From contig CT867987.1 of assembly GCA_000165425.1 (NCBI GenBank), positions 186,001-250,000 on the forward strand: a stretch of DNA of 64,000 nt, read 5' to 3'. This DNA is from Paramecium tetraurelia (lineage: Eukaryota). Below are positions 1,301-44,128 of the stretch, piece by piece. Positions within the stretch are counted from its first letter, which is position 1. Each line of letters begins with the position of its first letter. Under the pieces are notes generated by a model. That model was not told the DNA's origin and ran no database searches. It worked only from the letters and a program-made list of their open reading frames with translations. Position numbers and translations under genes: made by a program.

Positions 1301-1421
1301 TTAAAAGAGATAGTCGAAATCTTTGTAAGAGTGCTAAGCATGTTCTTGAATAAATATAATAATCAATAATATTTGGTTTCTCCAAAATAAATATAATTTG
1401 TTCCCATTATTTTTAAAGAAG

Positions 1422-3170
1422 ATGGGATGTAGTAAATCTGTTTCGATTGTTAAACCTCTTGATTTCTAAGAAATAAGGGAAATCACCCAGAAAATGATTG
1501 AGGGTGAAAATGAGATTATCACCATACTTTTTCCTGTAACTGAGAGATCTTAAAAGCGAAAAAGCACTATCACAGTATTTTTATCTCCTCGAAAGTCTCA
1601 AAGTCGTCAAGATTTGTATTAGTCACCCGTTCGAATTTCTGCCAGATCGAATTCAAGAATTTTCAAAGAAGAGAAGATCACAGAAAACATCTTAACTTTC
1701 ACTGAAAGATCCACTTAAATCCAGTCCATTAGTCTTGCTTCTGAGTCTCCAACAAGAAGAGATAGAGACGGAGGTAGTAGTGTCCATAAGGCTGCATCCT
1801 CCTTTCATTCTAATGTTGAAGGCCAGAAAATAGACAAAGAACCTGATCTTCATCCGATCGTACAATAGCAGATACAAAAGCTAGGATCATTCAAATTTTT
1901 GTAAGATTAAAATTACTCGGATTGTATTAAGTTGCAGCCCCATAGATTTTCTAATGGGGATGTCTATTCAGGTTGTTGGAAAAATAACCTTAAGCATGGT
2001 AGAGGTAAATTATTCCTGGCTTCGGGTTCCTATTTTGAAGGATACTTTAAGGAAGGACAAATGATGGTAGGTAAATATTTTTTTAAGAATGGTAATATAT
2101 ATGAAGGGGAATTTTTTGAGGGAAAATTTAATGGTAAAGGTTTTTATCTTTGGACTGATGGCGAATATTATAATGGATAATGGAAATTGGATTAAAGAGA
2201 TGGCTAAGGGGCATTTCAATGTGCAGACGGCAGAAGATATGTTGGAGAATGGAAGAATGACAAAAAGAATGGACAAGGCGAATATATTAGTCCAGACGGA
2301 AATAAATATGAAGGTCAATGGAAAGATAATAGAAGGAATGGGTTTGGCACTGCCTATTTACCAGATGGGTCTTCATTTAAAGGCTAATGGTTGAATGATA
2401 AAAAATCTGGAAAAGGAGAATATCGCTATGCAAATGGTGATGTTTACTATGGAGATTGGTATGATAATTTAAAGCATGGCAAAGGCAAACTTACTTAAAA
2501 GGATGGCTGTTCTTATGATGGCTAATTTTTTAATGGTTAAATGGAAGGAGAAGGTACATATATTTGGAGCGATGGCAAAAAGTATGTTGGATCTTGGAGT
2601 CGTAACACAAGAAAAGGGTTTGGTATTATGACACTACAGGATGGAAAATATTATAAAGGAGAATGGGAAAATGATGAGAGGTATGGACAAGGAGAATTTC
2701 ATTGGGGACCAGACTAATATTACATTGGTTAATGGGTTGAAAATGTAAGGGAAGGTTCAGGATAATATGTTGAAGATGGTACCAAGTACATAGGCAATTG
2801 GGTAAGTGATAAAAAACATGGATAAGGAAAATAAGTATATTCACTTTACACTTATGAGGGTTCTTGGATCGCTAATTAGAGAGAGGGATAAGGAACTGCT
2901 ATCTTCAATAATGGATTGAAATATACAGGATAATGGATGAATGACTGTATCCATGGACAAGGAATAGTTGAATACAAGGATTATAAGTTTAATGGAGATT
3001 GGTCTAGAAACAGAATGGATGGCAATGGTGTTTTTACTTATAATTTCTGTATATATACTGGATAATACAGGAGTGGAGTAAGAGTAGGAGTTGGAACATT
3101 TAAAGATGGAGCTGGCAATGTTATTAAATAGGAATTTAGAAATGGAAATTTAGTTGATTTTTCCGAATGA
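1422..3170 (+). CDS. MORN-repeat protein with N-terminal MGC acylation motif (582 aa, intronless)
   Basis: ATG 1422 (MGCSKS), in frame with track ORF 1932. Many tandem Y-x-G-x-W/F-x-x-D/N-x-x-H/N-G-x-G repeats from about 1950 to 3140, read through TAA/TAG. TGA 3168-3170. Confidence 0.92.
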
Positions 3171-4439: not shown

Positions 4440-5198
4440 TCAATTTAGTTTAGGCTTCTTTGCAAATTGTATGGATTAATTGTATAACTCATAGATTTCT
4501 CTAACAGAGAGCATTAAATCATTTGATTTAATGATTGTTCCCAATTCCTAAAATATATCATAAAATTACTTCTTCTATATTGTCTAATTAAACCTTATAA
4601 TCAAGCTAATTAACATGCTCAATAAATTTCTAGAATTCTGGAATTTCTTTTACAGTTTTCATAGTTTCCTCCGTTTATTTTAATTCTTAAATCATCTCTT
4701 CTTTGATAATATTTAGATCATTGAAGCAATTATAAAAATTTTAAAAACACAACTCCAGGCCTGGATTTGATTTATTTGATTTTAAATGTAAGGCTATTTT
4801 AGGGATTGCTTGCTCAATAATTTCATTGAAGTAATGATTCAATTAATTTTAAGAGCTTTGTGGTTTTCCAAACAATAATTAAATTTAAGTGCTTCGTAAT
4901 ACTTCTTAACTTGACTCTTATAGTTATTTATATTATTCTAACTATTAATTTAGACCAGCTACCTTAATGATTTATGATAAAACTACTTTATTTTCTAGAA
5001 TATCCACATACATTTTTTTTCTTTTTCGACTATTTTTTGCTGATTCTCTATTTTTAACAAGTTTCATTCTTTCTCTCAATATGATTTCTTAATCAGTCAA
5101 AGCTAAAATTTATGATTTGAGATGCTACCTCTCTATCCTCTCTTTTTTGGCTTATAATCTATTGAATGATCAAGAAAGTCATAATAGTCATTATCCAT
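4440..5198 (-). CDS. bZIP transcription factor
   Basis: After a 26-nt intron (GTAGCATC..TTTTAG) the frame reads LRERMKLVKNRESAKNSRKRKKMYVDILENKV, the canonical bZIP basic region N-x7-R plus zipper start. Ends QFAKKPKLN-TGA at 4440. Confidence 0.88.
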
Positions 5199-5402
5199 GT
5201 TTTAATTTTATTTTTCTTTCAAAAATAGTGTTCTAATTGACGAATATATATTTGATGATGTTGCGTATTATTTTCACATTAAATTTTTATTTCATAATGA
5301 TAATTTGGCAATCTTGCTTTGTGCATTTATTATAATTATGAATTAATCAAGTATCATATTAATTTAAACTTTATGAGTTAATAACAGAATACAAAATATA
5401 AA

Positions 5403-8400
5403 TCATATTATAGGTTACTTTTCACCAGCAGCTGAAAAGATCATTTTTATATCTTCTCCTTGAATAGAGAAGGGCGAGGCACTTTTGAAGATTGGCAATT
5501 CTATATGCGATAAGTTTTAACTTTCGTTAGTATGATGATGCTTTTTGTTTTCGAAATTACAGTTGATGGTAGCTTCTTCACATGAGGCTTCAAACATATC
5601 TGGTTCCATAATATGATTTACATTATTGTTGTTGCTAATTAAAGAATAATGAGGAACACTTACTTCTGTTACAGTTCACTATCGATGGATATAGCATCAT
5701 CAGAGAATTGGTTTTGTTTGATAGCTAGCTTTCTAATAAGGATCTTACTGTAGGATTCCCAAGTTTTGAAGAGAATCAAGACAGTAAGATAATCGTGGAG
5801 AATATTAAAATTAGCCTTTAATTGAAGGGCTGAGCTTATGTTCGATCTTTCGATGTGCCTATTTTTCCTGTAGTACATCAAGCGCAGTTGCATTTCTTTG
5901 TTGAATTATTTAATTTATTTGATGGAATCAGGAGTACCCTCCTTAAAAACATCTGCATGGAATTTCACTCTGAACAACTCATAAATCAATTGGTTGTACT
6001 GAATGTAACCGTAGTGATCACTATCAATAATATTAAATGAATTACCATTTCAATTTAAATGAGGAGGCTATTTTAGCAACATCCCAAAGATTCTCCTCTT
6101 CCCCTCCTCCAAAAGGTTTACCAATGTCTAAGAGAAACTTGCATAAGAATTTATAATGCATCGTTTATCCTTAAGTATCCGAGGAGTATTTGCACCAAAT
6201 CGTTTTAATTTTATCGATATTTTCAACATATGATTAAATTGGTGAGGCTTATAATTAGAAAAAAGATTCAAATTATTCTACCAAACTTAATAAAAATAGT
6301 GTTAGAAGAACGTAAGTGGAAAAGAACATGAATAAGAAAAAGTATATTTAACTTGCAAATGATCCACAATATTTAGGATCTTCCCAACATAAAGGATTGT
6401 AATGCATAGTATCTGTCATGATAGTTCTCCAATCATCCCCTGATGCACATTTGAATAAAGTCATCATGGCACTGCCTGCTGTCATGAAATTAAGTTAGTC
6501 ATCCAACACTTATCCCTTATCTATTGTGCCAAATAATTGACACCCAAATAAAGCAAATACTAGCATGGTGATTATCAAAATAGAAAAGATCTTGCCTAAA
6601 TATGGCAAAGCAAATAGAATCACATTGATCAATCTTTGTAAATTGATGAATCCTTAGAATATTAATATTATTCTTAGACTTCTTAAAGAGAAGAATAAGC
6701 GAAGTAATTAAAATCCCTCATCATTAGGAGTGGATTTATAATATATCATAATCCAATCTACTGAATAATCTGCAACGAAATCTATGACTGCAATCACTAT
6801 CAAAAAGAAATAAAATCTTCTCCAAGAATTATCAAAAAATCTATTCACACCCAATGCCAAAAACAATAAGATAACCCAAATTAGATAAATTCCAGTTAAT
6901 GCATTATGAACATCATTTATCCTTCTAAAGTACTCATCACTCATATCTGATGTGAACATCAACAATATTATGAAATCCACCCATAAAAGTAAAAATAAAC
7001 ATTTTTAAGACGTTAGACTGCTTGTAATGTCAGAAGCCATCTTTCTTATTCCATTAGTGGGTGGAGTAGAAAATTATGGGAAGTCATTTATCAACATTTA
7101 TGATATTTCTTTAAATTCTTTTTATGATTAAGTGACTTCAGTATTTTCAATTTCCCTCTGATTTTTCTTTAGATTGGTATACAGTACTCCTGTGAAAAGA
7201 CTTAAGAAAAACATGGATCCTATGAAAACAAAAAGTAAGAAGAAGATGTAAGTGACTATATAAGAATTGAATCCTTGTGGACCTATAGAAGCCACTTAAC
7301 TATTCTCAGCAATTTAATAAATCTCACCCCAACCATCCAATGTGGCTGTCACAAACAAAGTAGGAATTGCTATTGTAATGTTATCAAAGTTATGCTTGTA
7401 ATTCACCCATATTTTCCCTTCCTCCTGACATGTCTGTTTATTAACTTCAAATGCCATCTTATCTTCACAATATCCAAATTATTACTCATAAAGTATAATG
7501 CCATACACTCCAAACATTATCCAAACTGATAATAAAGTAATTATAACGTTTAATATATCAAATAAGGATCTTCCGATGGCTTCTCTTAAATTTGTAAGCC
7601 AACTCAATCTATACATCAATTTCATTGGCCTAAAGTAACCTAAATAAAGGAGAATTTTTAAAATAGGCTTAAAATCCTCTGGATCCTTACCAAACGCTAT
7701 GATGTTTGATACTTGATAGATAAAATCAAACACTTAGAATGTTGAGACCAAGTAGGAGCCTTGATCCATATACAAACCTTTAGCAATAACATTAAATATC
7801 GTATCAGCCAATTGAATGATATTACATGAGAATTGAAGAGTGTCTGGATACGACTCACTATCTGTTTCATAATCGTTATAGGTTTTAAGGATGAAAGCTA
7901 TGATAGATAGATAAGTGACTATATCCATGATGTAGACATATATCATTGATGTTGTCAGATGAGTCAAGACTATGCGAAATAGATTGTCCTTCTCAAACAA
8001 AAACAAAGAGGATTCGCACTCTATACCTTCATATAATTTTGGTGTTTTTGATAGCAATTTCTTATTAATTTATTCTATAATTGTATATTAATTGTATATT
8101 TACTTATTGACTTAATTAGATTGTAGATTAAATTGGGTTTACTTTTATTGATCTCATCATTTGACAAATTCTTATTGGGCATTTGTTGATCTTAGTTTGT
8201 TTCAACTAACTGCATTTGTATTTCGTCTGAATTCTATGTAATATGCTATAATTATTCATTAATATTTTTCTGGATTTCATTTTGAATTTCTTCAACTGGT
8301 TAATCTAGATACTTCCCAAAACCATCCAATAGGACCGCCATAACTAAACCATAAGTTAGATAATTTAAGATAAGCACCAGAGAAAAGGAATAGATGATTG

Positions 8401-11400
8401 AAAAGGTAAAATCAATATCACTTCCAATCACATAAACACCATACCAATCATCGTTTGTCATAATGTTGAAGATTGTCATAAATGATTTAAAGATATTTTC
8501 ATAGGAATGTAATTATCCAAGGGAATCATTTTGATCAAATTTTCCTACAAACATTTCCATTCCTGTTAGAGCATACATAAATATCACTAAAAACATAAGG
8601 AATGTCAAATAAATGTATTAATCAAAAGTCATAGAAGCAATATGACCAATTGTAATAGCCATCTTATTGTATTTAAGACATCTATAGAATAACAAACATT
8701 TGGTTCCTCTTATTAATCGTAAATTTTACTCACTCAAATAATTTGTCATGTAATCACTTATGGTTAATTCGAAAAAGTTTATTATCACAATAACGGATTA
8801 TAAAATTAAATCAGGAGATCTCAGAAGATCTTTAAATCTAAAACCCAAAAACCTCATCATCAATTCAAAGCATAAAAATATTGTAGAGATATCTTCAACT
8901 GTGGATATGATATTGATATCTACAATTCCTTAGAGCGATAAAAATGTAAAATTGTTAAGTATTACTAAATCAAAGAAGAATTGACTAAATCTGCTAGTTA
9001 CAATTATAAATGCGTATTTTTATGACATTATGTAAATTCCTCTTATTCCATTGATCCAAATAATGATATCAACTTTATTAAGCATAGATAAAACTACATG
9101 AAAATACTACATTCTGAATTTAGTGACTTCAAGTACATCTTTGCCTGACCAATTATGTTTGGTAATTCTTCTGTGATTTTAATATTCTTTCATTCTCATA
9201 CTCTAATATTTGAATTTATTGGAGACTTAATCATGAACTATCATTGGGATTTTTTGATTAATTTTTAATTTGACTCCATCAAAATTTGTATAGTATCCCT
9301 AAATATGTATATAAGGTTTTCCGTTTCTAACAACGTAGAAGGTTTTGTATTTGGTTTCTAAAATTTAGGTAGCTTTCATCTTATTTAATGATTTTAGATT
9401 AATTTGGTCAAAATTAACAATTGAATCTGTGCTCTATTCAACTTTCTTTTAGTAAATACTCATAAAGGGAGACACCGATTTACTTTTAGTTGGGAAGGCT
9501 GACTTTCCAAATTGAGTTTTGCCATACAATTTATCCTTTTCAATCTTTATTTAATGATAGATCATTTAGAATTTGGTTGATCTAATCTTTTCAAGATTGA
9601 AGTTCTTCTCTTTTTGAATCTAATCTTATATATCTCTAAATATTAATAGAATTATAATTACATCAACTTAAGTAGAACATCATTTGATGAAGTAAAATTT
9701 TGCTTGACGTTCATATTCACTTATGGTTGTAATCTTGAAAATTTAATCGTTTTTAGTTTTTCAATAACCTTCATATCGAATTCAACCTCAGTATAATTTT
9801 TTACCTTGATTTTCTTAATTAAAGCATCTAGAATATCAAATTTTGGTAAAAGGAACCTTTTCCAAGTGAAACTGGTAATATATTCAATAAATGGTAGTTT
9901 AATGATTCCACTTTCCAATTATTTTTGTTTAGCTGACAATGTTCTTTCGGTTTGATATTATTTCATCTTAAAGCTGTTAGGATCTTCAATAGAATATTGT
10001 TTCAACGATTCTTCATTTAAATTAGTTCTGTATTTTTTGATTACTTTATAGATTTTAATTTCTCTCAAATGAGCAACATCTAGGATTTCTAACAGATTTC
10101 TTTCTGGATATTCTTCCTCTTCTTTCAATCTTTTCTAAATTTCATTCTCCTCTTCCCTTTTCTTGTTTTCTTCGGTTGCCTCGGAATAATGAACCTTCAA
10201 CACTGCAATAACTATGTTAAATCCAAAAAAACCTCCAATAAAAATAATTAATAAGTAATATAACCAAACCCAGGGATGAAATATTCTCATAGTAAAGAAC
10301 ATAACCCAACTCCAATCATCCATTGTAATTGTTCTTAGAATTTATCCTAAAGAACCTATCAAATTATTGAAAGAAGTTGGCATTTTGGGTGTGTAATCAC
10401 TATACATACAATGCATTCCAGAGGGACATTGAGCTTAATTGCATTGTATCCACCCTTCAGTTTCATCGCCATTTTCATATTGACATCTGTAATTGAATAA
10501 TCCTTGGAATAGAAAGATACCCATTGATGCAAAGATCAATGAAAACAGTATCACTATCATTAGTGCTTCTACCAAGAACTTAAATGATTATCTGAGTGCA
10601 GTCATCATCACATTTAATCCCTGGAAGATATTGGTCAAATACATTAATAATGTAACTAATCTCAGAGGAGATATGTCAATGATAATGATTTCGGGATAAT
10701 AGAGATTCATAGCAGTGAAAAATATCAGCACAAAATCATAAATGTTTTCCATATTTCTAAAAAAGGCATAATCATTAAAAAAGATTCCACTCGCTATAAT
10801 TCTTAATCCGATTTCAGAAATAAATAGTATCATAACTACTTCTTCTATATTATCAGTATCTGTTCTTCCGTTGGTTTTAACTACAATATACAATACCACA
10901 TTAAATAAGATAAGGAATGTCATCAGGATTTTAAATAAAAAATTGTTTACTATTTTTCTTGCCATTATCGGAATACTATATATTACATAAATAAAAGCCT
11001 TTCTCAAGTTTAACAGAGCCAAATTATCATTATATTTCTAAATAAACTGAATGTTTTACCTATAATTCATAATTTAATCTTTAAAATTCTGACAACTTGA
11101 CTAATCTAACGTAATAAGGATCTTTCATTGTGTTTCTTTCTATTAACTTTAAATGTCGACGAGTGATTTTATCATATTCAATATCATTAAAATATTCAGA
11201 TTACACTTCCTGTTGCTGATTGAATGCATTCAAAAGATTCAAAGCGATTCCTGGTTTTTCTGGGTCTGGCTCCGATCTTTGTTGCATATTCAGTTAATGA
11301 GAGGCTGAGGAGACAAATTTGGAATAGACATGAATAGACTTATGAAGTGTATGTCTTTGAATTCTATCCTCAATCATGTCCTCTCTTTCAATGCTTTATA

Positions 11401-11723
11401 GCGAATATTCGGACATTTTTGAATTATCCTAATTTATTTCATGGTTGCAGTCTTAAGGGATCGTCTCTCTATGAATTTGATCAACTATTATACTCATGAA
11501 ACTGGATTCGATTTAACTGATCAACAGAACTTTGACCCTATTTCTACATTCTGTCAACGCTCAAGCTTTTTGCTCTTTCAGGAGTTTCAGGACCTTTCTG
11601 ATGTTTTCTAACATACTACAAATAAAAAAACTTATCATTTAAGCCGTGACTACCAGAATTCTAAGTCACTTCCTTATTGATAATGCTCCTTTCAGTATAT
11701 TTGATTGACTCTACTTTTTTCAT
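5403..11723 (-). CDS. Four-domain (24-TM) voltage-gated-type cation channel alpha subunit, Cav/Nav/NALCN superfamily, about 2050 aa
   Basis: Four S1-S6 repeats with P-loops ITMDDW, MTNDDW, ATLDGW, ASGDDW, and S6 segments such as FIGGFFGFNIVIAVLK. Introns seen at 11469-11493, about 11038-11059, 8075-8103, 6021-6045 and about 5635-5663; frame arithmetic implies one more. TGA at 5403. Confidence 0.93.
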
Positions 11724-12175
11724 ACCAAAAAATATAAATAATGTGATTATAATATATCGGCTTATCATTTCCAAGAACATAAATTAAATCAGATCATATG
11801 TAATTATTTAACTTCAACCTCAACTTCATTGGTTTCAATGCATTTAACCTTCAGCATCTCGTATTTCTTTCCAATCCTCTTCTTATCTATGAAATTGAAT
11901 ACTTATTTAAAAAATCATTTGCAATAGAATTTCCAACACTCAGAATTAGGGGGCGATGTACTGCATCTATCTGTCAATTCATTTCTTATCCAATCTTCAT
12001 TTTTGATGAGTTTTACTTCCATATACTCAAAATCTCATTTTTTGCTTAAGGGATGGAGAGTGAAATGTCTTTTATTCTTAATCCCTGCAGCCAATCGAAA
12101 TTATCATTTCCAATTGATTAATGTTCTATAATCCTTTACACCTATATATTTCGATTCGTAAAAACATTAATTATA

Positions 12176-13841
12176 ATGGCAACAAAATATATATCAATTT
12201 TGGAAAACAGATATGGGATTATCAAAGTGATAGGAAAGGGTGAATTTGGAGAAGTTTATCTGGCTGAAAACCTCTAAACGGTAATTCTTACATAAATGAG
12301 TCTAGAAACAACAAGTAGCAATTAAGTAAGCATTGAAATCAGAGTTGGAAAAAGTCAAAAAAAGACAAGAGTTGTTTTAAACTGAAAAGAGAATCATGGA
12401 AATGGTCAATAATGACAATGTGATTAATTTGAAGGATCACATTGAAACTAAAGATAAGCATTATTTGGTTATGGAATATTGTAATGGTGGAGACTTGGAT
12501 TCCTATATCAAGCTACTAAGAGAGAAAAATAAGTAACCGCTTTCTGAACGATAAGCGAAAGAATTCCTAAAACAATTACTAAATGGTTTCAAGGGTTTAT
12601 AAGATTTGTTTGTCATCCATCGTGATCTCAAACTAAAAAACATTCTCGTCAATGATGGAGTCATTAAGATTGCTGACTTCGGTCTCAGCAAGGTTGGAGA
12701 GGTGGGAGTTACTCAGGTGGGAACACCCTACACAAAGGCTCCTGAAGTTTTCAAAGGCAGAGGCAGGATTCGATATGATAATAAAGCAGATATCTGGTCC
12801 TTGGGAGTTATTTTCTATCAGATGCTCTTTGATTTGCAATATCCTTTCGTGGGATAGAATGAGAAGGATTTGTTTGACAATATTGAAAAGGCCAAGGATT
12901 TAAACTTCGCACCTGCTAAATCCAATGTGAAGATTAGTGAAGACGCCAAGAGATTGCTTAGAAGGATGCTGACAAAGGATCCAAATCTACGAATAACTTG
13001 GGAACAATTGTATTAGGATCCTTATCTTGAATTTGGACAATAAAAGGATTTGGGACCCTTTGATTAATATTTCTAGAGCATCATGAATAAATTCAAAATG
13101 ATCAAAGAATTGTAATAAAAAATTTAAGAAACTCTGGGCAATAGTGAGAGTTTGAGAAAGGATTACAAAGTTATTAAAAATTTAAATTAATATTATGTTT
13201 AGTTTATGCTTGCTAAACGGGTAATTATTCTATCAAGGATATTGGAATAATTGTTATAAGAACTAAAAAATCAGTAAAAATAACAAAGCAAACCATTACA
13301 ATTAATAGTCAAAGAAGTATTTTATTTATACTATTTTAATTAGACAGAAGAAAATTACTATGTGTATTAGTTATATTATGAAAATACTAAATTCAATTTA
13401 GAGTCCTTTATTAATAGGAGGAAAAAAGAGTATAAAGATTTCGATGAAAAAGTACTCAATGAGATGTAAAACTCTAAATGTAATTGTTATATTTAAAATA
13501 GAAATGGATTGGTCATACTATACTAATATTGTGTTGAACTATTTTTATTGCTTATCCACTTAGGCTGAAATAATGGAAGGCTAAAATGAAACCAAAGCAC
13601 TCTAGTTCTACGATCACATGATTGACGTTCTAAAGTGTTTGGAAAGTGATGCAGCTTTTGAAGGAGACAAATTAAAATTCAAATCACAATCAGTAGATTT
13701 TTAATCTAAATATAGAACGATGAACTTGAATCCAAATAAAACAATGATCCAATGATGGGAGAATTTACCAAAGAATAATATATCGAAATTTAAAAAATAA
13801 ATGTAAAGGAATTGTTTCAAATCATGTTAAATGATAAATGA
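12176..13841 (+). CDS. Ser/Thr protein kinase, ULK/ATG1-like, with helical C-terminal domain
   Basis: IGKGEFGEVY, VAIK, MEYCNGGDL, IHRDLKLKNIL, IADFGLSK, GTPYTKAPE, DIWSLG. 25-nt intron at 12281-12305; further small introns in the tail. TGA 13839-13841. Confidence 0.88.
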
Positions 13842-13860
13842 TATATTATATTAATTTATA

Positions 13861-14187
13861 ATGGACAAACAAAAATTGAGGACAACTTGGCAATCAAGTG
13901 AATGGAGTTTCAGTAGGCAGAAAAAGTTATATGAATTATAACACAATTAATCTACTTTGAGATTTCAACAATAGCGAATCAAAACAGAACCCAAAGAGAC
14001 TTTAAAAAAATTTACAAATCCTACAAGTTTTCATGAATATGTACAATTAATCGAAAAAAAATATCGAATTCAAAACTTGAGTAAACCAAAAAGGAAAGTA
14101 GGAAATGGAAGAAGCCTAGTTCAAATTTGTTCCACAAAATCTCTAGTTCTATATGAATCGTTACCTAATCTTTTACAAATAAATTGA
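13861..14187 (+). CDS. Small basic hypothetical protein (108 aa)
   Basis: ATG-to-TGA code-6 ORF (MDKQKLRTTWQSSEWSFSRQKKLYE...) filling the gap between two genes. Confidence 0.55.
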
Positions 14188-14221
14188 TGAATAAATTAGA
14201 ATATTATAATTAACAATTTAA

Positions 14222-16249
14222 ATGCAAACTATTGAAGACAAGATCAAACTGTGTTTGACTGTTGGAAATCTTACAGAGGACATCAATCTAGAATTAACCA
14301 AAGAAGAGTAATCTATTGAAATGCAAGAAAAAATTAAAGATGATCCAGTTAAGATTGTCTACAAAGAGATCCAATTCAAGTAATAGGAATTGATGTAATC
14401 TACATGGTAAGTACTTGATAAAGTCTGGAATTGCCCCATTTTTAATTAGGCAGCCATTTCTAAAGAATTATATTAAAATCTTAGTGAATGCTATTACCTA
14501 TTGAATAAAATTCACCAGAACGCAATTGATTTGACTAAAAAGTTTAATGAGGTCCCTGATTTTCTCACTCGTTTTTTCTAAGCTATTAAAATTACATTTA
14601 TAGGCATTTTATAACTGGAATAAATTGGATTAATCACAAATGACAAGGATATTGAGAGTAAATAAATCAATCAATAATATAATATCAATTCGAATAGATA
14701 GAAATTAAATTAGAAGGCTATTTGCATACTAGTTGAATTTTTAATCACTCATATACTTTCGCATCTTGCAGTATTGTTTGAAACAATTGAAGTGAGAAGA
14801 GAAAAATACGAACTAAGATAATTGGTAATCTACTTATCTAAGTTACAAACATGCTTTGAATAATTGCCTTGTGCTGCTCAATTGGATATTGAAGACATCT
14901 TTTGTTATGATCGATCAGATCCCAGATGGTAAGGTCTAAATAGCATTATATCAGAAGTCGTTTTGGGTCCAAGAGAATAGATATCTGAATCATATGGAAA
15001 ATTGGCTGATGGAATTATGTTAGCTAATGCCATGATATCAAAGGGATCTGAATTTAGTAGTGAAGCTGCTCAACAAGTAATGTAAGGATTTGGGGCATTA
15101 TATTACCTGGTAGCCAAAAAAGAAGCTAAATTGAAGGCTAATCATTTCATGGCTGAACCAAACAAAAATCTCATATTTAAAGTATGGAATTTGGGAGAGA
15201 GTGGATTTCTTAGTAAATTATTACCTCTTCTCTTTCCTTAGATTACTTATAACAGAAAGATATATATTCCTTAACTTTTTAAACCCTTAGTCGAAGACAA
15301 CATACTTCAACAATATAAGGAAAACAAAATTAATCGCATTTAAAACGATTGTGGAGAATGTTTAAACACTAACCTACCTAATTGCCAAGAATTACTACTA
15401 AAAAATAAAGAGAAAGTAATTGTACGAGTTTTATGTCATTATAATCTATAAGAGATATAAACTTTAAGTTTGTTATAACAGACTCTTAAATTGATACAAG
15501 GTCAAAAGATATTTGATTAAATAGTCATCCATATACATGGAGGAGGGTTTGTAAGTATGTCATCAAGATCTCACCAAACTTATACTAGAAAATGGGCTAA
15601 AAATTTATAAGTGCCAATATTTTCTATCGACTATAGAAAGGCTCCAGAGAGTCCTTATCCTTATGGATTAGATGATTGTTGGCAAGCCTACATGTTTATA
15701 ATGAATTACATTGATAAGTATTTCAATATCAAACCCAAGAAAGTAGTCTTAGTTGGAGATAGTGCTGGTGGTAATTTAGTGGCCGCCTTAACCATCTATA
15801 TTATTAAAGCTGGAGCAAGAATCCCTGATGGTATCTTAATGGCTTACCCTGCATTGTGTTTGGACATTAAAAAGTTTACTCCCAGCTCTTTAATTTCTTT
15901 AAATGATCCTTTATTACACCACACCGTATTGAAATTATGCATATCATCATATGTTCCAGAAAAATTTGATGCATCTTTGGATCCATTGATGTCTCCATCG
16001 ATTGCTAGCGATGAGATCCTTGCTAGATTTCCTCCTACTAGAATGGTATTAGGTACTAATGATCCATTACATGATGAGAGTTTTAGATTTGCTGATAGGT
16101 TATTGAAATTAGGAAAAGATGTTAAAATCACTGAATATAAATGGATGCCTCATGGATTTCTATCATTCGATGTTGTTCAAGGAATGAAAGAAGCTGAATA
16201 AACAGTGCTTGATGCTTAAAAAATTATCTAAAATCTACTACAATATTGA
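14222..16249 (+). CDS. Hormone-sensitive-lipase-family alpha/beta hydrolase (675 aa)
   Basis: HIHGGGFVSMSSRSHQ oxyanion motif, IDYRKAPESPYP, GDSAGG nucleophile, DPLHD and HGF catalytic residues. ATG 14222 is in frame with track ORF 15611. TGA 16247-16249. Confidence 0.92.
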
Positions 16250-18564: not shown

Positions 18565-21500
18565 TCAGCTAATAGGCACAATTACATTTGCATTTATGTG
18601 CAAAGTCTACTTAGTACTTCTCGTAAAGCTTCTTTTGACAATTGGCAGAAGAAATGCATTTTATCTCATGATCTATCTTTTTTTATAAGCTTTAAACAGA
18701 GCCTTGGCCTTTTGTTATCCGATTGATTCGGAATTTTCATTTGGTTTGTCTACATCGTGATACTTTTTGAAGTAAATGTTTGGATATGACAGATATTTAA
18801 TGAGACTCTCCTATAAGATGGATTTCCTCTCGTCTTAACTCAACATTAATATCTATGTACTGTTATACATATCAACTCTAAATTGTTTAATTTTCAATTA
18901 ATCTAGATAGAGATCTGATCTCTTGATTATTTAAGATAGGTTATTTTGAACATTATATATGAGATACTCCTTTTGCACTTCAAAAGGCTTTACTAAGGCG
19001 TATTCTGAATGCTGTATCAAATTACATTTCATTCGAAGGAAATACAAATCTTCAAATTCGAACTTATTTAAGTATATTTTCAATTGCGGATTATCAAAAT
19101 AATTATCTACTATTTCCTTTATGTTTTTATTAAACTTTTGGCTTGCCTCAAGTTCATTCCTCTTTGTGAATATTTTAGAATAATGTTGCATTTTTATAAC
19201 TTTTTTGATAATTCTTTAAAACTTTAATTTGACTCCTTAGTTTTTAATTCGAATACTCTGTCTTGTATAATTTTTACGAACTATTTTATTCTACGGATCT
19301 AATTAAATAAGATAAAATACAAAAGGTTTAATGGTCATTCACTTTTGGTGGACTGATATTTGTTTAAGTGTTTGATTCTACATATTGTAATGACTCCTTT
19401 TCATTCGCAATCAAAGAATCTTTAGATTGCAAAACCGGTTTCTTAGATTGAGTAGGCTCAGAAGGATCTATTTGCTTTATATTATAAAATTGAATAATTG
19501 GCAAATCCTCTTGATTTTTCATCATTTATGCAATTTCTTACAAGAACCATTAATCAAATATTGCATTAAATTGATTTCTGATCCTTGACCTATTACGCAA
19601 ACCTGGGACTCTCTCCTATTGAGTATAAAATTAATGAGACTTTATGACTCTTTCCTTATCAATAACAAAGTGGACTATTGGGCAATTTTGGATATCATGA
19701 CCATAGCAACTACATGATTTACATTTGGTATTGGAGTCCCTCAGATGCATCATTATTTCATCTTTCATTTTACAAAATGATTCAAAATCTTAAGGATTGT
19801 CTTGTAATGTATTGATAAAATCACTTCTTGTTAAAACTAGTAATTTTACAAAAGATTGAGATTACAATTACAACTTTGATTATTACCCAGTTAATAATTC
19901 ATCTAATCCAAAATACTAACCTTAAGAAAATTTTATGATATCAGATCTATCTGTAAAATTAGTACAAATACTTAATGTACCATAATCAATAAAGCATAAA
20001 CAAGGTTCATTATAATGAGGCAATTCACATGTTATTATCTATTCAGGAGTAATAAGGACAGTCTTAAATAGTTTAATTAGTTTTTTTTTTGTCTCTAAAC
20101 TAAATGTTTAATTGAACAAGTCGCATTTTTCAATAATCGAGAAATTGGCCTCGTTTATCAATTTATTTCTCAGGTTTTCAGACAATGAAGTAATTAGCTT
20201 TTCTTCTTCTTCGTTCTCCTATTACATTTGTTGGCTCCAATATATTTTAATGTATTCCCTAATCCTATTTAATTTAAATGAATAGTGATACTGATATTGT
20301 AATTCAAAACTTATGTGCTTCCTATTCATATACTTATTAATTATTCGTATTTTGTCAGTGGTGTTCTCGGCAGACAAACTTATTGAATTCAAGATCTCTC
20401 CAACAGTATTCACACTAAATGATAACTATACGCATGTCGTAAACATAAATAAAATTGTACATATCTTCTCTAATGAATCTAACAATTAATAATGAAACTT
20501 CTATACTTAATGGAACTATGTCTCCATATCCAACACTAATCATTGTCACAGTTGAAAAATAGAAGGCCTCCAAATATTTGATTTCATACGAGGCGTCTGT
20601 TAAATTTCGGCTGTCCAACCAATTTACCATGCCTATGTCGTTGGCATATGAACCTATGAAATACCAAAGACAACTGTAGATGTGCAGAAAATATAAAATT
20701 GTGAATAGCAATTTGGCTAAATTCATAATTGATGAGTGAATTTTGCTAAGATGAATTGATTCTTCCACATTCCTTATGATTTTGGCAAAGTAGTGATATT
20801 GAGTTATGAAAATGATTAATGATAGATTGAGCCATCTGCTTTATAAGAAATAGTCGTTAAAATAGCCGCATAAGAGCACCAACAGGGAAATGCCATCTAT
20901 TATCAAACCCTATTTGAGATAGTTATTAAAAATTAGGTAGCGATCCACAATGGGCTGACCGTATTCGTAATATACTGTGTTCATCTTCATTAGGTAGTCC
21001 GATATTAAGAATACGTAAAAAGGGGTTGTCAACCAAATGGACTGCATATACATTAGGGATGTATTAAATGCTAATTAAAGGGGAATCATTATGAAAAAAT
21101 AAATTAGTACAAAGCATAAACAGAGGTCCCAAATGATTTTTGATATTGATTGAGGATATATGATGGGCATTACTCTTAATAGTTCTGTTATTGGATTATA
21201 ACATATGAAGCTCTGTTTGTTTTTCTTCTTTTTCCTAACTGAAAATGAATTGGACACCAAATTCTCAACTTCTCCACTAGCCTTATCTCCCACAATCTAG
21301 AAATGCACACTTTTAAAGAACAGCTTATGCCTTCTGCTCACTGATAATTTTGTCAGGAACCTCTTTACAAAATAGTAAACTCTAATTGTAAATTTCCTAT
21401 TTTCTTTTTAGGTCATTGCCTTTTTAATATTGAGTTCTTGATGGGCAGGGAATCCAGAGTATTCTTAAATTTAAGTTAACATGTTTTGGCTTAAACTTTC

Positions 21501-21623
21501 AGGAATACTTAGGACTTAAGGTTTCTATTCATAAAAATCATCATTGATTTAAGCAACATCATCAACGCTTATATCCAAATTAGGATCTTTGTAATCTTCT
21601 AAGTTATCATTCGAAGACAACAT
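18565..21623 (-). CDS. 6-TM K+ channel with CNBHD (KCNH/CNG-like ciliate family)
   Basis: KIIWDL S1, pore YFSTVTMISVGYGDI, C-linker NKYMNRKHISFELQ..IREYIK, CNBHD and a following CX2CX4HX4C motif. Small introns near 20480 and 20270. TGA at 18565 is in frame with track ORF 19191. Confidence 0.9.
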
Positions 21624-22412
21624 TAATTATGGTTTTTATTACATTAATAGTAGTTGAGATAATTAATAAAAAAAGTATTTCAATATATTTTCAACAATTT
21701 CAAGCTATGAAAAATTAAATTATTATCTCAAAAATCTAAAAGTCCATATGAATTTCATCAGATAATTTTAAAATTAGCTAAATTTTTTAAGTAGATTTAA
21801 AATATCAAAACTTTAATAACTAATAGTTTCCTTAAATGTACTAGTTACATTTTTTATTTATTTACAAGGCATCCAAAATCAGTGAAAGTAAGGATGTGAG
21901 TAATTTTGATTCATTAATTTAGATATAAGTATATTTAAATTATAATTTAGATGAGTATTTATTTTCGACAATTGTCTTAATAATGATTTGTTTGATATAT
22001 AAAATTAATTACCCTATAAATTGGAATTCTTAAAGTTTAGATTGATCAATGATATTAATATCTAAGATGTATTCCAATCTTGTTATGAATTATAAATTGG
22101 CATATTAAGAATTAATATCAGAACACTTTGTTAAACCATTTATCATCAAACGTATTAATCTATAAGATCAATCTATATAAGCTATATGGATATAGATACT
22201 TTAATAATTGATATATTATTAGATTGAGGGGAGCCTTCAATTGGGTAATTCAAAATGGCAAGTAATTAGGTTTAAAAATATTCCATCCTAAGAGAGATTA
22301 ACAGAAGAAATAAAATTTAGATTAATAAATTTAAGAAGATAGAGATATATAATAAAAAAGAAGAAAAACCTGAAAGAAATTCAATAATTATACTATATTT
22401 AATTGAAATATT

Positions 22413-34164: not shown

Positions 34165-36560
34165 TCATTGAGGTTTGTATAACCACCCAGTTCTACAAAA
34201 AGCACCAGCCAAGACCAAAGATAAAATAGCCATCAATTTAATCAAAATATTTAATGATGGTCCTGAAGTATCCTTAAGAGGATCACCAACAGTATCACCT
34301 AAAAGATATGATTCAAATTAATACCAATAACAGCAGCTTTGTGTTCATCAGATCCCTTCTTCTTTACTTCTCCAGCTTCATTTCTATAGAATCCAGCTTC
34401 AATATATTTTTTGGCATTATCCCAGGCTCCTCCAGTATTAGAGGCTGAAATGGCCATCTAAACACCGCTAACTAAAGCTCCTGGCAATAGACCAGCAACA
34501 GCATAGGGTCCTAAGAACAGTCCGACAGCAGTTGGAGTGACAATGACCTATAATTTAAATAATTGAAAATGAGTACCAAGAGTCCAGGAGGAATCATTTC
34601 TTTTAATGAAGCCTTGGTTGAAATGGCAATACAGGCTCTGAAATCTGGTTCTTCTGTGCCTGCATAAATACCTGGATGTTCATGTAATTATCTACGAACT
34701 TCTTCAACCATTTGAAGTGCAGCCTTTCCGACTGATTTCATAGTGAAGGCAGAGAATGCATATGGCAACATGGCACCAACTAATAACATTGCGAAGATGA
34801 TAGGATCATCGATTTTGGCGCCTTCAGCAAATGGGTATTGATCTCCTACTTTGTAGGTTTATATTCTTGTTAAATATCCACCATAGAGTGATAAAGAGAC
34901 TAAGGCAGCTGATCCGATAGCGAATCCTTTTCCAATAGCTGCAGTAGTGTTACCTGCAGCATCCAAAGCATCAGTAGATTCTCTGACATTTTCACCCAAT
35001 TCACTCATTTCTGCAATACCTCCTGCATTGTCAGAGATGGGTCCATAAGCATCAATGGCCAATCCTATGGTAAGATTGGAAAGCATTCCTAGAGCAGCCA
35101 AGGCAACTCCATAGAAGGAAAGCATCTTCATAGACAACAAGGCAGTTATAGCTATAGCCACAATAGGGACAATGGTTGATAAGTATCCTAAGGCTAAACC
35201 ATAGATAATGTTGGTTGCTGCTCCAGTTCCACAAGACTTAGCTACTTCTCTGACGGGAGTATAAGAATGGGATGTCATGTATTCAGTGAAATACCCAATC
35301 AACAATCCAGACCATAATCCCATAAGAGAGCACAAGAAAGCATGCCAAGGTTTAAGTTCTTGCAATTAAATAGAGCCATCTGCAGCAACCATCACATAGT
35401 CAGCAGGTAAACACCAATAAGCAATACCTATAATAATTGGAGATAATGCAACTGTCGATAACAACAATTGGAATTTCAGAGTGGATTCAATCTTATTAAT
35501 GTGATTCACTTTTGAAATATAAACAGCATAAGCTGATACCAAAATACAAATTCCGATACCAAATGCTGAAACCATCAATGGATACATCAATTAACTGATA
35601 TCAATGACATAACTATCCCCTTATGCAACTCTTAATTGGGTAGATGAAACGACCAAAGCTGCACAAGTAGATTCTGCAAATGAACCAAATAAGTCAGCTC
35701 CCATACCAGCAATATCACCAACGTTATCTCCCACATTGTCAGCTATAGTGGCTGGATTCTTTAAATTATGTATGAATCAATATACCTTTGGACTGTCTTC
35801 TGGTAAGTTCTTCTCGACTTTACCTACGAGATCTGCTCCCACATCGGCTGCCTTGGTGTAAATGCCACCACCAACTCTGCCGAACAATGCAAATGTTGAT
35901 CCTCCCAATCCATAGGCTGCTACGTAATCGAACATTGTGACCAAATCCTCAAAATTGTTGTCTTCACTCTTCACTATTATTGCATTATAGATTATTATTA
36001 TTAATGTTAAAATTGAAAGCGATATTGACACCAATAAAAATCCCATTACGCAACCACCTCTATATGCCATCTTTTATAGCTTTAATACTTCACTTACTTA
36101 AAATGCATTCGCTAATGATGTGATTGCTGAAAATGCAGTCCTATAATTAGCTGCTGTTGCTATGGCCATTCCCAAATATCCACAAAGCATTGAAGTTGCT
36201 GCTCCCAATACAAATGCCAGTGAAGACCATGGTGAAATAAACTATCGGATATATGTACTTCTCATACTATCAATAAAACAGCCATGATCGCTAAAAACAC
36301 ACTGCAATCTGTGTATTCTTCTCTTAAAAAGGCTTGAGCTCCCTTTTTTAAATATTGTCAAAGTTTACATCTTATATGTGTTCTCCTATCTCTAACAGAG
36401 TCTCTATTTTCTCTTATTCTGCACCCTATAACAATTCTGTCAATCCCTCATGTTTGTGATGAATCTCCACTTTATGAACTGCCATCCAATTGAAGATAGC
36501 CCAAACTATACCACAGGCACATGCTATGAAAATGAACACTAGGGCTGTCACAAATTCCAT
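34165..36560 (-). CDS. Membrane H+-translocating pyrophosphatase (V-PPase), K+-dependent type
   Basis: [113 protein letters not shown]. Several tiny introns. Confidence 0.97.
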
Positions 36561-36716: not shown

Positions 36717-39129
36717 ATGATGAAGAAAGGGGAAATAGAGCATGACGAGTATAAAAGACCACCTAACCTATTGAAAGCCAAAAAACATGGGATTGCCAAA
36801 AGGTTTGCAGCTCCAATGCCTTTTACTGATTTTGATAAGGGGAGTGTATGTCCATGTTGCGGATATCCATACAAAAACTAAATCCTTCCACTCTGCGTTT
36901 CTATATCTGAATTCAGTTTCATCGGATCAGGGATAGTTCTGTACTTCGATTTTGTGATTTACTCACAAATTATTTTACTAATCTACATGTTAGTGTAATA
37001 CAATATATAGATCAATAGTAGGAGTGTACACATTTTATGATAATAGTTAAGGGTTCAGATGCTAGATTGAAAACAAAGGGACAGCTTCAGGATGCGAAGA
37101 AGATATCTACAATAAGTTTTCAAGATCTAATGTGTATAAGTAATGAGCATCTAAATAATTAAGAGAGTTAGATGTTGTGGCTAGTTACTTAAATTTTGCA
37201 GCAATCATTTTATTGATAATTTCTAATTTGATCTACCGTAGACATATTAATAAAATTTGTTTGGAGATTGATGATGCAGAAATTGAGGCATCTGATTACT
37301 CAATTATGATCTATAATGCTCCAAAAAATTGTAAAAAAGAAGACATTAGATCTTACTTTTTGTAAGAGGAAGGCATGGAGGAGTTGGAATTGAGAAAGAT
37401 TTGTATGGCTTATGAAGTGAAGCCTTTTTTGTAATTAAAAATAGAATTGGAGGAACAATAAGCAGAATTATCGCATGTTTTGGATTTGGAACGATAAAAG
37501 AAGAAGTCTTCTAAATCAAAAGCTGAAATCCTTTTGAAAATTAAGGATATTCATGAAAAATTTGATTATGTAGAGAAGTACAAGGAAATTATTTTCAGAT
37601 TTACTGGAGTTATCTTTTTATCCTTCAATTATGAAAAGCATGCTGATTAAGTTTGCGATCAATTTCAATAGACCAAATTTTAATTGTTATTAGAGCAACT
37701 CAATTTGAAGAAATACTAGAATCGAAAGTTCCTTGGAAATTCAGTGATAGTTAGAAAGGCACCTTTGCCTGGTGATGTGCTATGGGAAAATCTGGGCATC
37801 GAAATCAAAGAACAATATAAACGAATAGTAACTACAAATGTTGTAACAGCAGCTCTATTGGCTGTAGGATTTGCCATGATATTTGGACTATCTTATATGT
37901 AAGAATACATCAACGCTTAAGTGAATTACGATCCTACTACGACTGCTGTGATTATCAATTTTCTAGGGTTCTTGGCCTCACTCATCATTTCCTTTATAAA
38001 CAGTGTTTTATCATCTACCATTATAAAATTAATCATCAGAGAATAGCATTCAACTAAAACTGAATATGACATTAGTATAGCTAAGAAGATAGGTTTGGCT
38101 GAGTTTATCAATGTAGCAATCCTAACTCTTTTGGTTAACATCTTGATCAAAGGGTAAAACGAAACAACGATAAATACTATGTATCAAAAAGGAGGTTTGA
38201 ATTCAGATGTGATGTGGATCTTTATGACAGATTCCTTTATGCCTTGGTTTCTGTTCATCGTTGACTTCGAACATATAAAGAAGTTATACATACGTCGACA
38301 GATCAAACAATTGGGGTCCAGTTGTAAACTAACACAAAAGGAAGCTAATGAGTACATTCATCATCTTAAAGAAGAGCATTTGAGGGTCCCATGATTAATT
38401 TGGCCGAGAAGTATCCTGCAATAGCTAAGACTTTATTGATGGCTCTTTTCTACGCTCCTTTGTTGCCAGCATGTTCATTTTTTGCACTTGCGAGTATTAT
38501 GGGAATCTACTGGATTGAGAAGATCTTACTATTGAGAAGAGATTCAAAACCCTTGCCTACAGGCAGTGATATGGCCTAAGCCATGGTTGAATTCTATATA
38601 GATCTAGTGATTCTTATCTACAGTGTAATGATTGCTTATTAAAGATTTAGTTAGGCAATTGTGTTTGGGAATACACTATATTTAAGACAATGCATTGGTC
38701 AACATGGATTTCTTTTATTATTTGTTCCATCTTTTATTTGCTTCCCAAAGAACGAGTCCTAGAATTCATTTTGAAGATAGGAATAGATAATGCCACCGAA
38801 GAGTCATATGATGCGAGGAGTCCCACGTTCTTGGATGATTATGATAGAAGAAATCCAGTTACTGCAGAGGAAGCCAAAAGAATTTGGATAGAAAATTAAC
38901 AACAACAAAATTCTGAAATGAATCAAATTAATTAGCTGTACTATTTTTATATATTTAGGTTAGTATGTCTGCCAAGCAACTTGACATTTCAATCTATCGT
39001 TATCATTATAACATTATGCAATAATAATCCAGGTAGCAGATTTTGATGACTAATCACAAGTCATTTTCGAAAGTTCATCCAGAGTTCAAGACAGAAAATA
39101 ATTATAATCTGAAAAAGCTATAATATTGA
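36717..39129 (+). CDS. CSC1/OSCA/TMEM63-like membrane channel
   Basis: GSGIVLYFDF first TM, ASDYSIMIYNAPK and FTGVIFLSF (cytosolic RRM-like domain), APLPGDVLWENL, multiple TMs, FYAPLLP..YWIEKILLLRR. The 3' end depends on the acceptor chosen (39046 or 39129). Confidence 0.8.
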
Positions 39130-39137
39130 TTAAATTA

Positions 39138-42100: not shown

Positions 42101-44128
42101 ATTCCAAATAGAAAATTAGTCAAGATCTAGTGCAACTTCAGACAGAACTTAAAATTCGGTCTATCATTTAATCAGAAATTTATAGTACAAAATTACATAT
42201 TAAACAGGTATAGTTAAAGCTATTTGCAATACTATTTGTCTTTCTGCATTTCTAATAATTTTGGTTGGCGTTTAATTAAATGTTGAAAGGAACAATTCAG
42301 ATGAATTATAATATAGAATCCCTCTGGTCAGATTGCCTTAAAGATTTAATAGATTATATTGTACATTTACAGCAATAGGCTAATTATAGTTGCAGAATAA
42401 ATTATTGAATGTATCATATGGAGAATATTATGAATATCGAATTCGAAATGAAAGTGCTCAAAAAAGAAATGAAATTTAAAGTTTAATATCAGATCTCAAG
42501 GATTAATTCTCCCATTTGTAATTGCCTCCATTAACAATCAGAATCATCAATGAATACATTTATCAATTGGACAATACGACTATGCTTTAATTTGATATTA
42601 TTGCTAATGAATATACTTCTCAGATTAACCAATATCTTCAAATGTAAGACTAGACTTTAGAAGATGTTTTCAAGATCGCAACACTATTAGAATTCCTTAA
42701 AGGAAATATAATTGCCTAATTAAAGATAACTATTAATGTGGTAGATGAAATTGAGCGAGAATTCTTTGATTTTATTGATTATTCTTCAATAGAATAATTG
42801 GTCTTTTTAACTGTTATGTTATTGATCATACTTATTTTCCTCATTATTCAATTACATCAGTGGCAACAACCATACAAATATATGCAAGTTGTATTATTGT
42901 TAATCAGTAAAATATCCGATAAAGACATCGAATTAACAATTTCCAAGACTTTATACTTACTTGATAGAATAATAAGTAATCCTTATCAAACTAAAAGTAT
43001 CAATTATTTTAGAGATTGTTTTTGGTATTCTAAGAAAATTTACAGTTTTTAGAGTGTAAGAAAATCATCCGAGTATTCAAAAAATAATTAAAATGGGAAG
43101 AATGTGTAATAAAAACAGAAAAAGTCATCTAGAATTTAAGATACATCCCTAAGTATTTTGAACATCAAGATAATTTTACTTTTAATTTGGTTGTGCTTAT
43201 CAGGATTTGCATTTTCCGCATATATCATTATGAATTAAAACATGAATGCCAGCCTACCAGAATTGAGATTAACTATGGAATTTGTGAAATTCAAATAAGA
43301 TCTTGATGGTATTATGATCATATGCTTTTTGCTTAAAAATTAATAGAGCTTAATAGAGTAAACACTTTAGGCTTTTGCTTTTAATCCGGAGTTGAATACT
43401 AGAGATAAATACTTTTAAACATAATATCAAGAATTAATAGAAGAGTTTAATCCTTTACTTGTAGAGATGGATGAAATTTATTCACGTATTTATGGTGATA
43501 TTGTTGCATCAACTAAAATTAGTGATGACAATAAGAATCTCTTGCTGAATCTCTATGAAAAAGACCTGTGTCAAATTATTCCATCTATTCTTCCATTTTG
43601 TGCATATGAAAATGGGGTTTTTTTATATTTTCCAACTTACCCTTCTACTTCATCATTATTTAATAACTAATAAACCTATAAGTATGGTATTAATGGAATC
43701 TATTAATAGTAACATATTAAAATATCTTTAGAATAATCTCCATTCTCAATACCCATTACAATTTAGAAAAAAACGGAATCATAGACACGAATTTGACAGA
43801 AGCTAATCTTTTTTTAGAGAACTCTGAATTTATCCAAATCATCCTTCCGTATTTCTTTGATTTAAGCTATGCAATACTTGAGTTCTATTATACGATCATC
43901 TACTCAACTTTGGATATCTTGGAAAGCGATTATGAAATGATTTTCGAATTTTATATGGCCGCAGGTATAGGTTGTCTAATAATCTTGTATTCTGTCACTC
44001 TAATAAGAGCTATAACACTCCAGAGAAAGGTTAGATTGGTTCTTTAAGCAATAATACTTATCCCATAAGAGTCATTAATTGATTAAGCCATAATTATGAC
44101 AATAAGAAAAATTGATAGAACTTTATGA
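39138..44128 (+). CDS. Giant multi-TM PAS-domain protein (TmcB/TmcC-like), copy A, about 1655 aa
   Basis: N-terminal multi-TM block, helical region, PAS-like NQLLPEYLVAKHDRFLKEFLTTGES, FIIFDESGKILGLS, Ser-rich linker, then four further TMs around two large loops. Track ORFs 40821, 42798 and 43467 share one frame; a 23-nt intron near 43709-43731 links to ORF 43793. Confidence 0.8.

Follow-up and report, generated by a model that had tools for sequence, protein, structure and literature searches.

The stretch of DNA analyzed in this work (hereafter the window) comprises 64,000 nucleotides of Paramecium tetraurelia (assembly GCA_000165425.1, contig CT867987.1, positions 186,001 to 250,000 of the forward strand; coordinates below are those of the window). 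On its minus strand it carries a gene of seven exons, running from 11723 to 5406, whose product of 2054 residues is a four-domain cation channel with an aspartate at each of the four selectivity filter positions. The gene model was obtained by exon-by-exon mapping of a database protein and by tblastn. Accession look-up identified the product as XP_001424033.1 (CAK56635.1, GSPATT00027664001) of P. tetraurelia, a protein found by a search with the frame holding repeats III and IV and named in its records only as "unnamed protein product" or "Ion transport domain-containing protein". All 2054 residues of this protein are reproduced from the seven exons by exact mapping under genetic code 6, and tblastn gave 98-100% identity to the window, except at alignment ends running into introns. 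The window is ciliate nuclear DNA with a guanine-plus-cytosine (GC) content of about 25-38%, and long frames appear in it only if TAA and TAG encode Gln. Four long minus-strand frames lie within 5441-11124, each with a Pfam Ion_trans domain, the third frame holding two such stretches. The introns of the gene are 22-29 nt long with GTA..TAG ends, and their positions are taken from the exact agreement with the database protein, as no splice joints were listed for the RNA reads. The possibility that the window holds a tandem duplicate of the channel gene was considered and rejected; tblastn matched only the gene itself.

Features of the channel gene (exons and stop codon from exact mapping of the database protein, introns from the match to it):
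11723-11494, minus strand: exon 1
11469-11493, minus strand: intron 1, 25 nt, GTA..TAG
11468-11060, minus strand: exon 2
11038-11059, minus strand: intron 2, 22 nt
11037-9662, minus strand: exon 3
9636-9661, minus strand: intron 3, 26 nt
9635-8104, minus strand: exon 4
8075-8103, minus strand: intron 4, 29 nt
8074-6046, minus strand: exon 5
6021-6045, minus strand: intron 5, 25 nt
6020-5664, minus strand: exon 6
5635-5663, minus strand: intron 6, 29 nt
5634-5406, minus strand: exon 7
5405-5403, minus strand: stop codon TGA
10168-10941, minus strand: repeat I, Ion_trans, residues 246-503 (Pfam PF00520, E 1.1e-24)
8312-8992, minus strand: repeat II, Ion_trans, residues 887-1113 (Pfam PF00520, E 1.6e-18)
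7158-7943, minus strand: repeat III, Ion_trans, residues 1227-1488 (Pfam PF00520, E 1.4e-56 for repeats III and IV together)
6255-7016, minus strand: repeat IV, S1-S6, residues 1536-1789 (second Ion_trans stretch and helices of the AlphaFold model)

With four Ion_trans repeats in a single chain, the protein is a member of the four-domain voltage-gated cation channel superfamily, by sequence as well as by fold. Its best relative among solved structures is Cav1.2 (E 1.5e-75), followed by other Cav chains, then by Nav (E about 1e-58) and NALCN (E 3.5e-31); the CatSper chains scoring best against the whole protein were CatSper4 (E 1.6e-10) and CatSper1 (E 6.3e-10). An AlphaFold2 model covering repeats III-IV only, made with a 50-row alignment (predicted local distance difference test, pLDDT, 83.3; predicted template modeling score, pTM, 0.80), was compared with solved chains by Foldseek, and the top 50 matches were all Nav, Cav or NALCN chains (TMq 0.63-0.74), the best being NavPaS, Nav1.7, Cav1.2, Cav2.2 and NALCN, at a template modeling score of about 0.7, together with Cav2.3. 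As a separate observation, the linker between repeats I and II is unusually long, about 380-400 residues (approximately 504-886, window approximately 10167-8993), and poorly conserved in the family consensus.

Position of the filter residues

The pore loops of the four repeats are the following:
10312-10326, minus strand: P-loop I, T-M-D-D-W, filter Asp453 (GAT 10320-10318), Asp454 at +1
8444-8458, minus strand: P-loop II, T-N-D-D-W, filter Asp1067 (GAT 8452-8450), Asp1068 at +1
7329-7343, minus strand: P-loop III, T-L-D-G-W, filter Asp1429 (GAT 7337-7335), Gly at +1
6429-6443, minus strand: P-loop IV, S-G-D-D-W, filter Asp1729 (GAT 6437-6435), Asp1730 at +1

The four Asp occupy the positions of the filter Glu of Cav channels, as established by three lines of evidence. 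The first is a MAFFT alignment of 90 proteins, namely XP_001424033.1 and 89 other matches from its search, which served as a control for the filter columns. The same four columns read EEEE in 12 of the 13 rows named Cav (the 13th is gapped in repeat II), DEKA in seven of the eight named Nav rows (the eighth, type 7, reads DENA), NEEE in all three named Cch1 rows and EEKE in one unnamed row; since the named Cav, Nav and Cch1 rows read EEEE, DEKA and NEEE, the alignment recovers the textbook filters. In the second line, each 100-residue pore stretch was searched by phmmer against solved chains, and the Asp of repeat I paired with the filter Glu of Cav3.1 repeat I (ITLEGW), that of repeat II with the one of Cav3.1 repeat II (LTQEDW), that of repeat III with the one of Cav1.3 repeat III (STFEGW), and that of repeat IV with those of Cav2.3 (TGEAW) and NALCN (TGEDW) repeat IV. 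The third line is the AlphaFold2 model, for repeats III and IV, where helices 259-270 and 275-284 (P1 and P2 of repeat III) and 559-570 and 575-581 (P1 and P2 of repeat IV), in model numbering, flank four-residue turns inside which the two Asp lie at 273 and 573. The pore-loop pattern, in which the turn holds the filter residue and a conserved Trp comes after it, is found by the alignments in all repeats and by the model in III and IV, and three Asp at +1 (454, 1068 and 1730) make up a second acidic ring.

Being D/D/D/D, the filter is not of the E/E/E/E type of Cav1 and Cav2, nor is it that of NALCN and Cch1 (EEKE or EKEE with a Lys, or NEEE), and all repeats lie in one reading frame rather than in four separate one-domain subunits as in CatSper. 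A sequence-only reading of this DNA had proposed a four-domain channel with a D/D/D/D filter in a single polypeptide, which is borne out here: its motifs, spans and codon coordinates proved exact to the base when compared with the exon mapping, repeats I, II and IV do carry the additional Asp at +1, with a Gly there in repeat III, and the alignment of the code-6 protein with Cav, Nav, NALCN and Cch1 places Asp, and no other residue, at the filter locus.

S4 segments and C-terminal motifs

The S4 segments were located by alignment, and their strings were compared with those given for Paramt23, the entry for this protein in Table S2 of a published survey of four-domain channels (PMC5824947, see Discussion). 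After the last repeat, two stretches resemble the C-terminal motifs of Cav channels:
10621-10671, minus strand: S4 of repeat I, poor in Arg and Lys (R/K), with one Arg only (the first Arg is kept); string identical to Paramt23
8672-8719, minus strand: S4 of repeat II, five R/K, charge run broken mid-way (alignment; Table S2)
7608-7658, minus strand: S4 of repeat III, four R/K, with Leu and Gly at the second and third canonical positions (alignment; Table S2)
6651-6707, minus strand: S4 of repeat IV, three Arg (alignment; Table S2)
5987-6047, minus strand: EF-hand-like stretch after S6 of repeat IV, split by the intron 6021-6045, alignable with Cav and Nav C-termini
5750-5782, minus strand: IQ-like motif V-L-I-L-F-K-T-W-E-S-Y, Ile-Leu replacing Ile-Gln; in the alignment it falls on the IQ region of L-type and P/Q-type Cav

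With R/K counts of 1, 5, 4 and 3, the regular spacing of a charge at every third S4 position is not found in all four repeats. The NALCN and Cch1 rows of the same alignment are likewise S4-depleted, and for this reason the depletion does not exclude membership of the superfamily. No Pfam EF-hand match was obtained in the open reading frames of the channel at the EF-hand-like stretch, and the IQ-like motif is the IQ motif given for Paramt23 in Table S3 of PMC5824947.

Conservation of the filter

The filter columns were surveyed in 41 close relatives, 26-89% identical to XP_001424033.1 over the full length, all of them named Paramecium proteins (tetraurelia, primaurelia, pentaurelia, octaurelia and sonneborni):
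DDDD in 35 of 41 relatives, with D,D,G,D at +1 in 33 and D,D,G,N in 2
DDD- in 2 of 41, repeat IV being missing from the record
D-DD in 2 of 41, with a one-residue gap at the repeat II column
DDRD in 1 of 41
NDDN in 1 of 41

The D/D/D/D state read from the window is conserved among these relatives, and each filter Asp column is kept in 38-40 of the 41, compared with 49% of rows for the average residue, which on the evidence of these rows indicates a conservation exceeding chance. Variants among the rows of the 90-protein alignment are E/S/L/L in P0062 and P0066 and N/D/D/N in P0046.

Outside these relatives, a HMMER search of every protein with repeats III-IV gave 5570 matches at E <=0.001, of which the best 150 were listed and 149 aligned. 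None of the 149 aligned (the best of the 5570) carries Asp in all four columns, and 72 read EEEE. Six fragments among the 149 have Asp in every column that they cover; one is a P. primaurelia piece of the channel family, and another is apparently a Cav3-type repeat placed wrongly in the alignment. Searching with a profile built from 19 members of the family gave 45 matches at E <=1e-20 among 2478 candidates; 37 of them are named Paramecium proteins, with at least 1991 bits, the next best is an unnamed protein with 277 bits, and six of the 45 are fungal. This profile search needs shared five-residue words, so absence elsewhere is weak evidence, and taken together the searches suggest that the all-Asp filter is rare, outside the Paramecium family, among the sequences that they covered.

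Transcription of the gene

Reads of 58 nt were counted on 5000-12200 in three oligo-dT RNA runs carrying the same species label, which gave 59, 143 and 87 reads. In nearly all of the depth the first mate maps to the plus strand, which is the orientation that standard stranded libraries give for a minus-strand transcript. The gene shows low-level transcription in the expected direction. The reads at 5000-5240 probably come from a neighboring bZIP-like gene. In an RNA library labeled with another organism (run X5), one contig matches repeat I at 9701-10312 with 14 differences, ten of which fall at 10219-10263, mostly three bases apart, a pattern suggestive of substitutions at the third codon positions of an orthologous or paralogous gene; another four contigs from this run match with no differences.

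Discussion

The protein and its class are already in print. In the survey of Pozdnyakov, Matantseva and Skarlato (2018, Sci Rep 8:3539, PMC5824947), row 73 of Table S1 is XP_001424033.1, under the name "Paramt23", and the S4 strings and the IQ motif tabulated for it (Tables S2 and S3) equal those of the window protein. As described in the passages of that paper on ciliates, the clade WSC I comprises three subclades, and subclade Ic is characterized by a dominant D/D/D/D filter, one or more S4 segments poor in R/K and an IQ motif, the pre-IQ not being identified. All of the class traits given there fit the window channel and none differs, and from these traits we infer that this single sequence belongs to subclade Ic. 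The distinct ciliate class postulated by the sequence-only reading therefore exists, and the question that it left open, whether such a class had been catalogued, had been answered in 2018 for the class and for the accession alike. For non-animal four-domain channels, the corresponding passage of Fux et al. 2018 (PMC6259924) likewise reports DDDD as one of the filter sites, with reference to Verret et al. 2010. Counted by eye in Table S2 of PMC5824947, the S4 pattern of the channel occurs in 20 of the 34 P. tetraurelia rows and in none of the rows of Ichthyophthirius (5), Oxytricha (13), Stylonychia (10) or Tetrahymena (8). Paramt23, 24 and 27 are identical in the S4 and IQ strings of these tables, and they are probably duplicates from whole-genome duplications. 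What this work adds to that survey is the exact gene model, the alignment of the filter to solved structures, the fold model, the counts showing how far the filter and +1 residues are conserved in five Paramecium species, and the RNA evidence.

As the sequence, the all-aspartate filter class, the weak S4 segments and the IQ motif have been in print since 2018, the channel carries little weight as a discovery, and what remains is a catalogued yet uncharacterized channel class. Study of it would allow one to probe, in a naturally occurring four-domain pore that is asymmetric, how selectivity is set by an Asp ring combined with Asp at +1, and Paramecium has Ca2+ conductances for which the passages of literature on them name no gene, to which this channel group could be linked.

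TxDxW is the named signature of the CatSper filter, and the sequence-only reading had called the pore CatSper-like. The likeness holds for the filter motif: according to passages of PMC10120453, which disagree partly with each other on the filter state of CatSper2, CatSper3 and CatSper4, CatSper1-4 have an Asp at the filter of every pore loop and an Asp or Gly at +1. It does not hold otherwise, since one-domain subunits assemble into the CatSper heterotetramer, along with many auxiliary proteins, the Paramecium channel has its four repeats in one chain, and the similarity of sequence is weak (best E 1.6e-10, compared with 1.5e-75 for Cav1.2). With animal Cav1, Cav2 and Cav3, which are the best sequence matches among solved structures, the channel shares its fold, the P-loop register, the Trp after the filter and the Asp at +1 of repeat II; it differs from them by Asp at all four filter sites, by the additional +1 Asp of repeats I and IV, by the reduced S4 charges of repeats I and III and by an identity of only about 20-24%. 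NALCN and Cch1 are likewise four-domain channels with weakened voltage sensors, and the pore stretch of repeat IV aligns well with NALCN, but their filters are EEKE-type and NEEE and the whole-protein score of NALCN is far below that of Cav. A preprint on the evolution of NALCN and Cch1 contains no statements on ciliates or on DDDD.

We consider it likely, from the features of the sequence, that the gene encodes the pore-forming, alpha1-type subunit of a pseudo-tetrameric cation channel of subclade Ic, a group expanded in Paramecium, with a Ca2+-selective pore and atypical gating. In the mechanism that we propose, the two carboxylate rings would form a high-field-strength site binding Ca2+ tightly, and such binding would make the pore Ca2+-selective, Ca2+ blocking the flux of monovalent ions and permeating by multi-ion knock-off as in Cav channels. 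Gating would be atypical: a single Arg is left in S4 of repeat I and two central charges are gone from S4 of repeat III, with repeats II and IV keeping five and three. The S4 alignment against Cav, Nav, NALCN and Cch1, together with the charge counts, leads us to expect a voltage dependence that is probably weak or unconventional rather than none. Feedback by Ca2+ and calmodulin, through the IQ-like motif that follows the EF-hand-like stretch, is plausible. The channel would be distinct from the one that carries the ciliary action potential, and our best guess is that it sits in the somatic plasma membrane.

Asp at +1 is also carried by CatSper1 and by Asp-substituted bacterial Nav pores. In the passages of a 2023 analysis on this residue (PMC10120453), channels with a "beacon" Asp at +1 are selective for Ca2+ in every case, with Glu as well as with Asp in the filter, and Gly at +1 is associated with the same selectivity in one-domain channels. 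The Ca2+ selectivity claimed by the sequence-only reading is thus a fair inference from the Asp at +1, and we regard it as reasonably probable. Several points weigh against the proposal as a whole. Asp rings are no guarantee of Ca2+ selectivity, and PMC10120453 describes as non-selective a one-domain channel of a diatom whose filter residue is Asp. Subclade Ic is graded "likely voltage-insensitive" in PMC5824947, and the passages on it term its filter "uncommon" and claim no selectivity. RNA coverage is for the most part under 5 reads and peaks toward the 3' end, the low-depth 58-nt reads of the three runs gave no splice joints, and six identifiers of the gene matched no paper in a search of main texts, supplements lying outside that search.

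An alternative that we hold possible, though on the unlikely side, is a voltage-insensitive leak-type or otherwise gated Ca2+-permeable channel similar to NALCN and Cch1, perhaps on an internal membrane. The single Arg in S4 of repeat I and the two charges lost from repeat III speak for it, as does the grading of subclade Ic cited above, and the pore stretch of repeat IV scores on NALCN (E 3.4e-14) like on most Cav chains. However, the five and three R/K kept by repeats II and IV would in principle be enough for voltage sensing, the filter is neither EEKE or EKEE nor NEEE, and over the whole protein NALCN (E 3.5e-31) falls far behind Cav.

Less probable still is a pore that is not selective for Ca2+, serving as a non-selective cation pathway or one for another divalent ion such as Mg2+. 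It could be argued that the shorter Asp side chains alter selectivity relative to Glu, that a one-domain channel with an Asp filter and a small +1 residue is non-selective (PMC10120453, in the passages cited) and that Mg2+ and Na+ currents exist in Paramecium, as noted in passages of PMC6627415. But the +1 residue of the window channel is Asp in three of the four repeats and Gly in the fourth, both of which are tied to Ca2+ selectivity in PMC10120453, and the Mg2+ behavior has been linked, in the passages on it, to Pkd2 and XntA.

A location in the cilia, with the protein acting there as a single-chain counterpart of the flagellar CatSper and as a route of Ca2+ entry, appears improbable. The D-x-W of all four pore loops does resemble CatSper, with its Asp filter and Asp or Gly at +1, and ciliates are described as relying on Ca2+ entry through cilia. 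Yet reviews, as far as their passages on the subject go, report three alpha subunits identified in cilia by genomics and liquid chromatography-tandem mass spectrometry (LC-MS/MS) and unique to the ciliary membrane, and these are other genes: the identifiers given in a preprint passage for the ciliary CaV1a-c are GSPATP00010323001 and GSPATG00033414001/33415001, not 27664001, and PMC5824947 ascribes E/E/E/E filters to the characterized ciliary channels of Lodh et al. 2016. CaV1a/b/c share with the window channel the organism, the four-domain architecture and calmodulin-type C-terminal motifs (PMC5824947), but differ from it by gene, by the E/E/E/E filter and by being described as ciliary. Identity of the window channel with one of them is ruled out by the gene identifiers and by E/E/E/E versus D/D/D/D, so it is not an already characterized ciliate Cav; the same data make a ciliary pool of the D/D/D/D protein less probable, and its far closer relation to Cav than to any CatSper chain speaks against a single-chain counterpart of CatSper. 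Overall, the sequence-only reading was right on architecture and filter and reasonable on Ca2+ selectivity; its candidate ciliary Ca2+ entry route finds no support, and its novelty has been overtaken by the literature.

It is equally doubtful, although worth stating, that D/D/D/D channels with depleted S4 segments, the window channel among them, carry the hyperpolarization-activated Ca2+ current of Paramecium. In the passages of the literature on it, this current is somatic, Ba2+, Sr2+, Mg2+, Mn2+ and Co2+ cannot replace Ca2+, inactivation is Ca2+-dependent, mutations that abolish the ciliary Ca2+ current leave it unaffected, and no gene is named for it. In such a case the double Asp ring would account for the extreme selectivity, the IQ-like motif for the Ca2+ feedback and the rearranged sensors for an unusual gating polarity.

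A decaying duplicate from whole-genome duplication without function is very improbable: a DDRD filter in one of the 41 relatives, a repeat II gap in two and a missing repeat IV in two could point to it, but the frame of 2054 codons is uninterrupted with six canonical short introns, full-length identity reaches 80-89% to the proteins representing the closest relatives in sister species, the 90% cluster of the protein includes members from three other species, the D/D/D/D filter is intact and the gene is transcribed.

Neighboring genes

The frames closest to the channel gene are the following:
1350-3170, plus strand: MORN-repeat protein (E 7.5e-75), just downstream of the channel gene
4558-5169, minus strand: bZIP-like short frame, just downstream of the channel gene
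12300-13568, plus strand: protein kinase
14081-16249, plus strand: alpha/beta hydrolase

An operon-like context was considered and rejected, the neighbors being unrelated eukaryotic genes. Farther along the window there are two frames of K+-channel type, one at 19154-21878 on the minus strand, with Ion_trans and Ion_trans_2 matches, a GYGD pore motif and a cyclic-nucleotide-binding domain in the adjoining frame, and the other at 51401-53500 on the minus strand, with Ion_trans_2 (E 1e-13) and GYGD; they are probably two of the many cyclic-nucleotide-type K+ channel genes of Paramecium. Two long plus-strand frames without a Pfam match, at 38985-43796 and 57779-62473 (1603 and 1564 residues), look paralogous, with common stretches in their translations and several hydrophobic segments. 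A frame for an H+-translocating pyrophosphatase (34313-35776, minus strand, PF03030, E 7.8e-129) lies within the most GC-rich 2 kb of the window, with a GC fraction of 0.38 compared with about 0.28 elsewhere.

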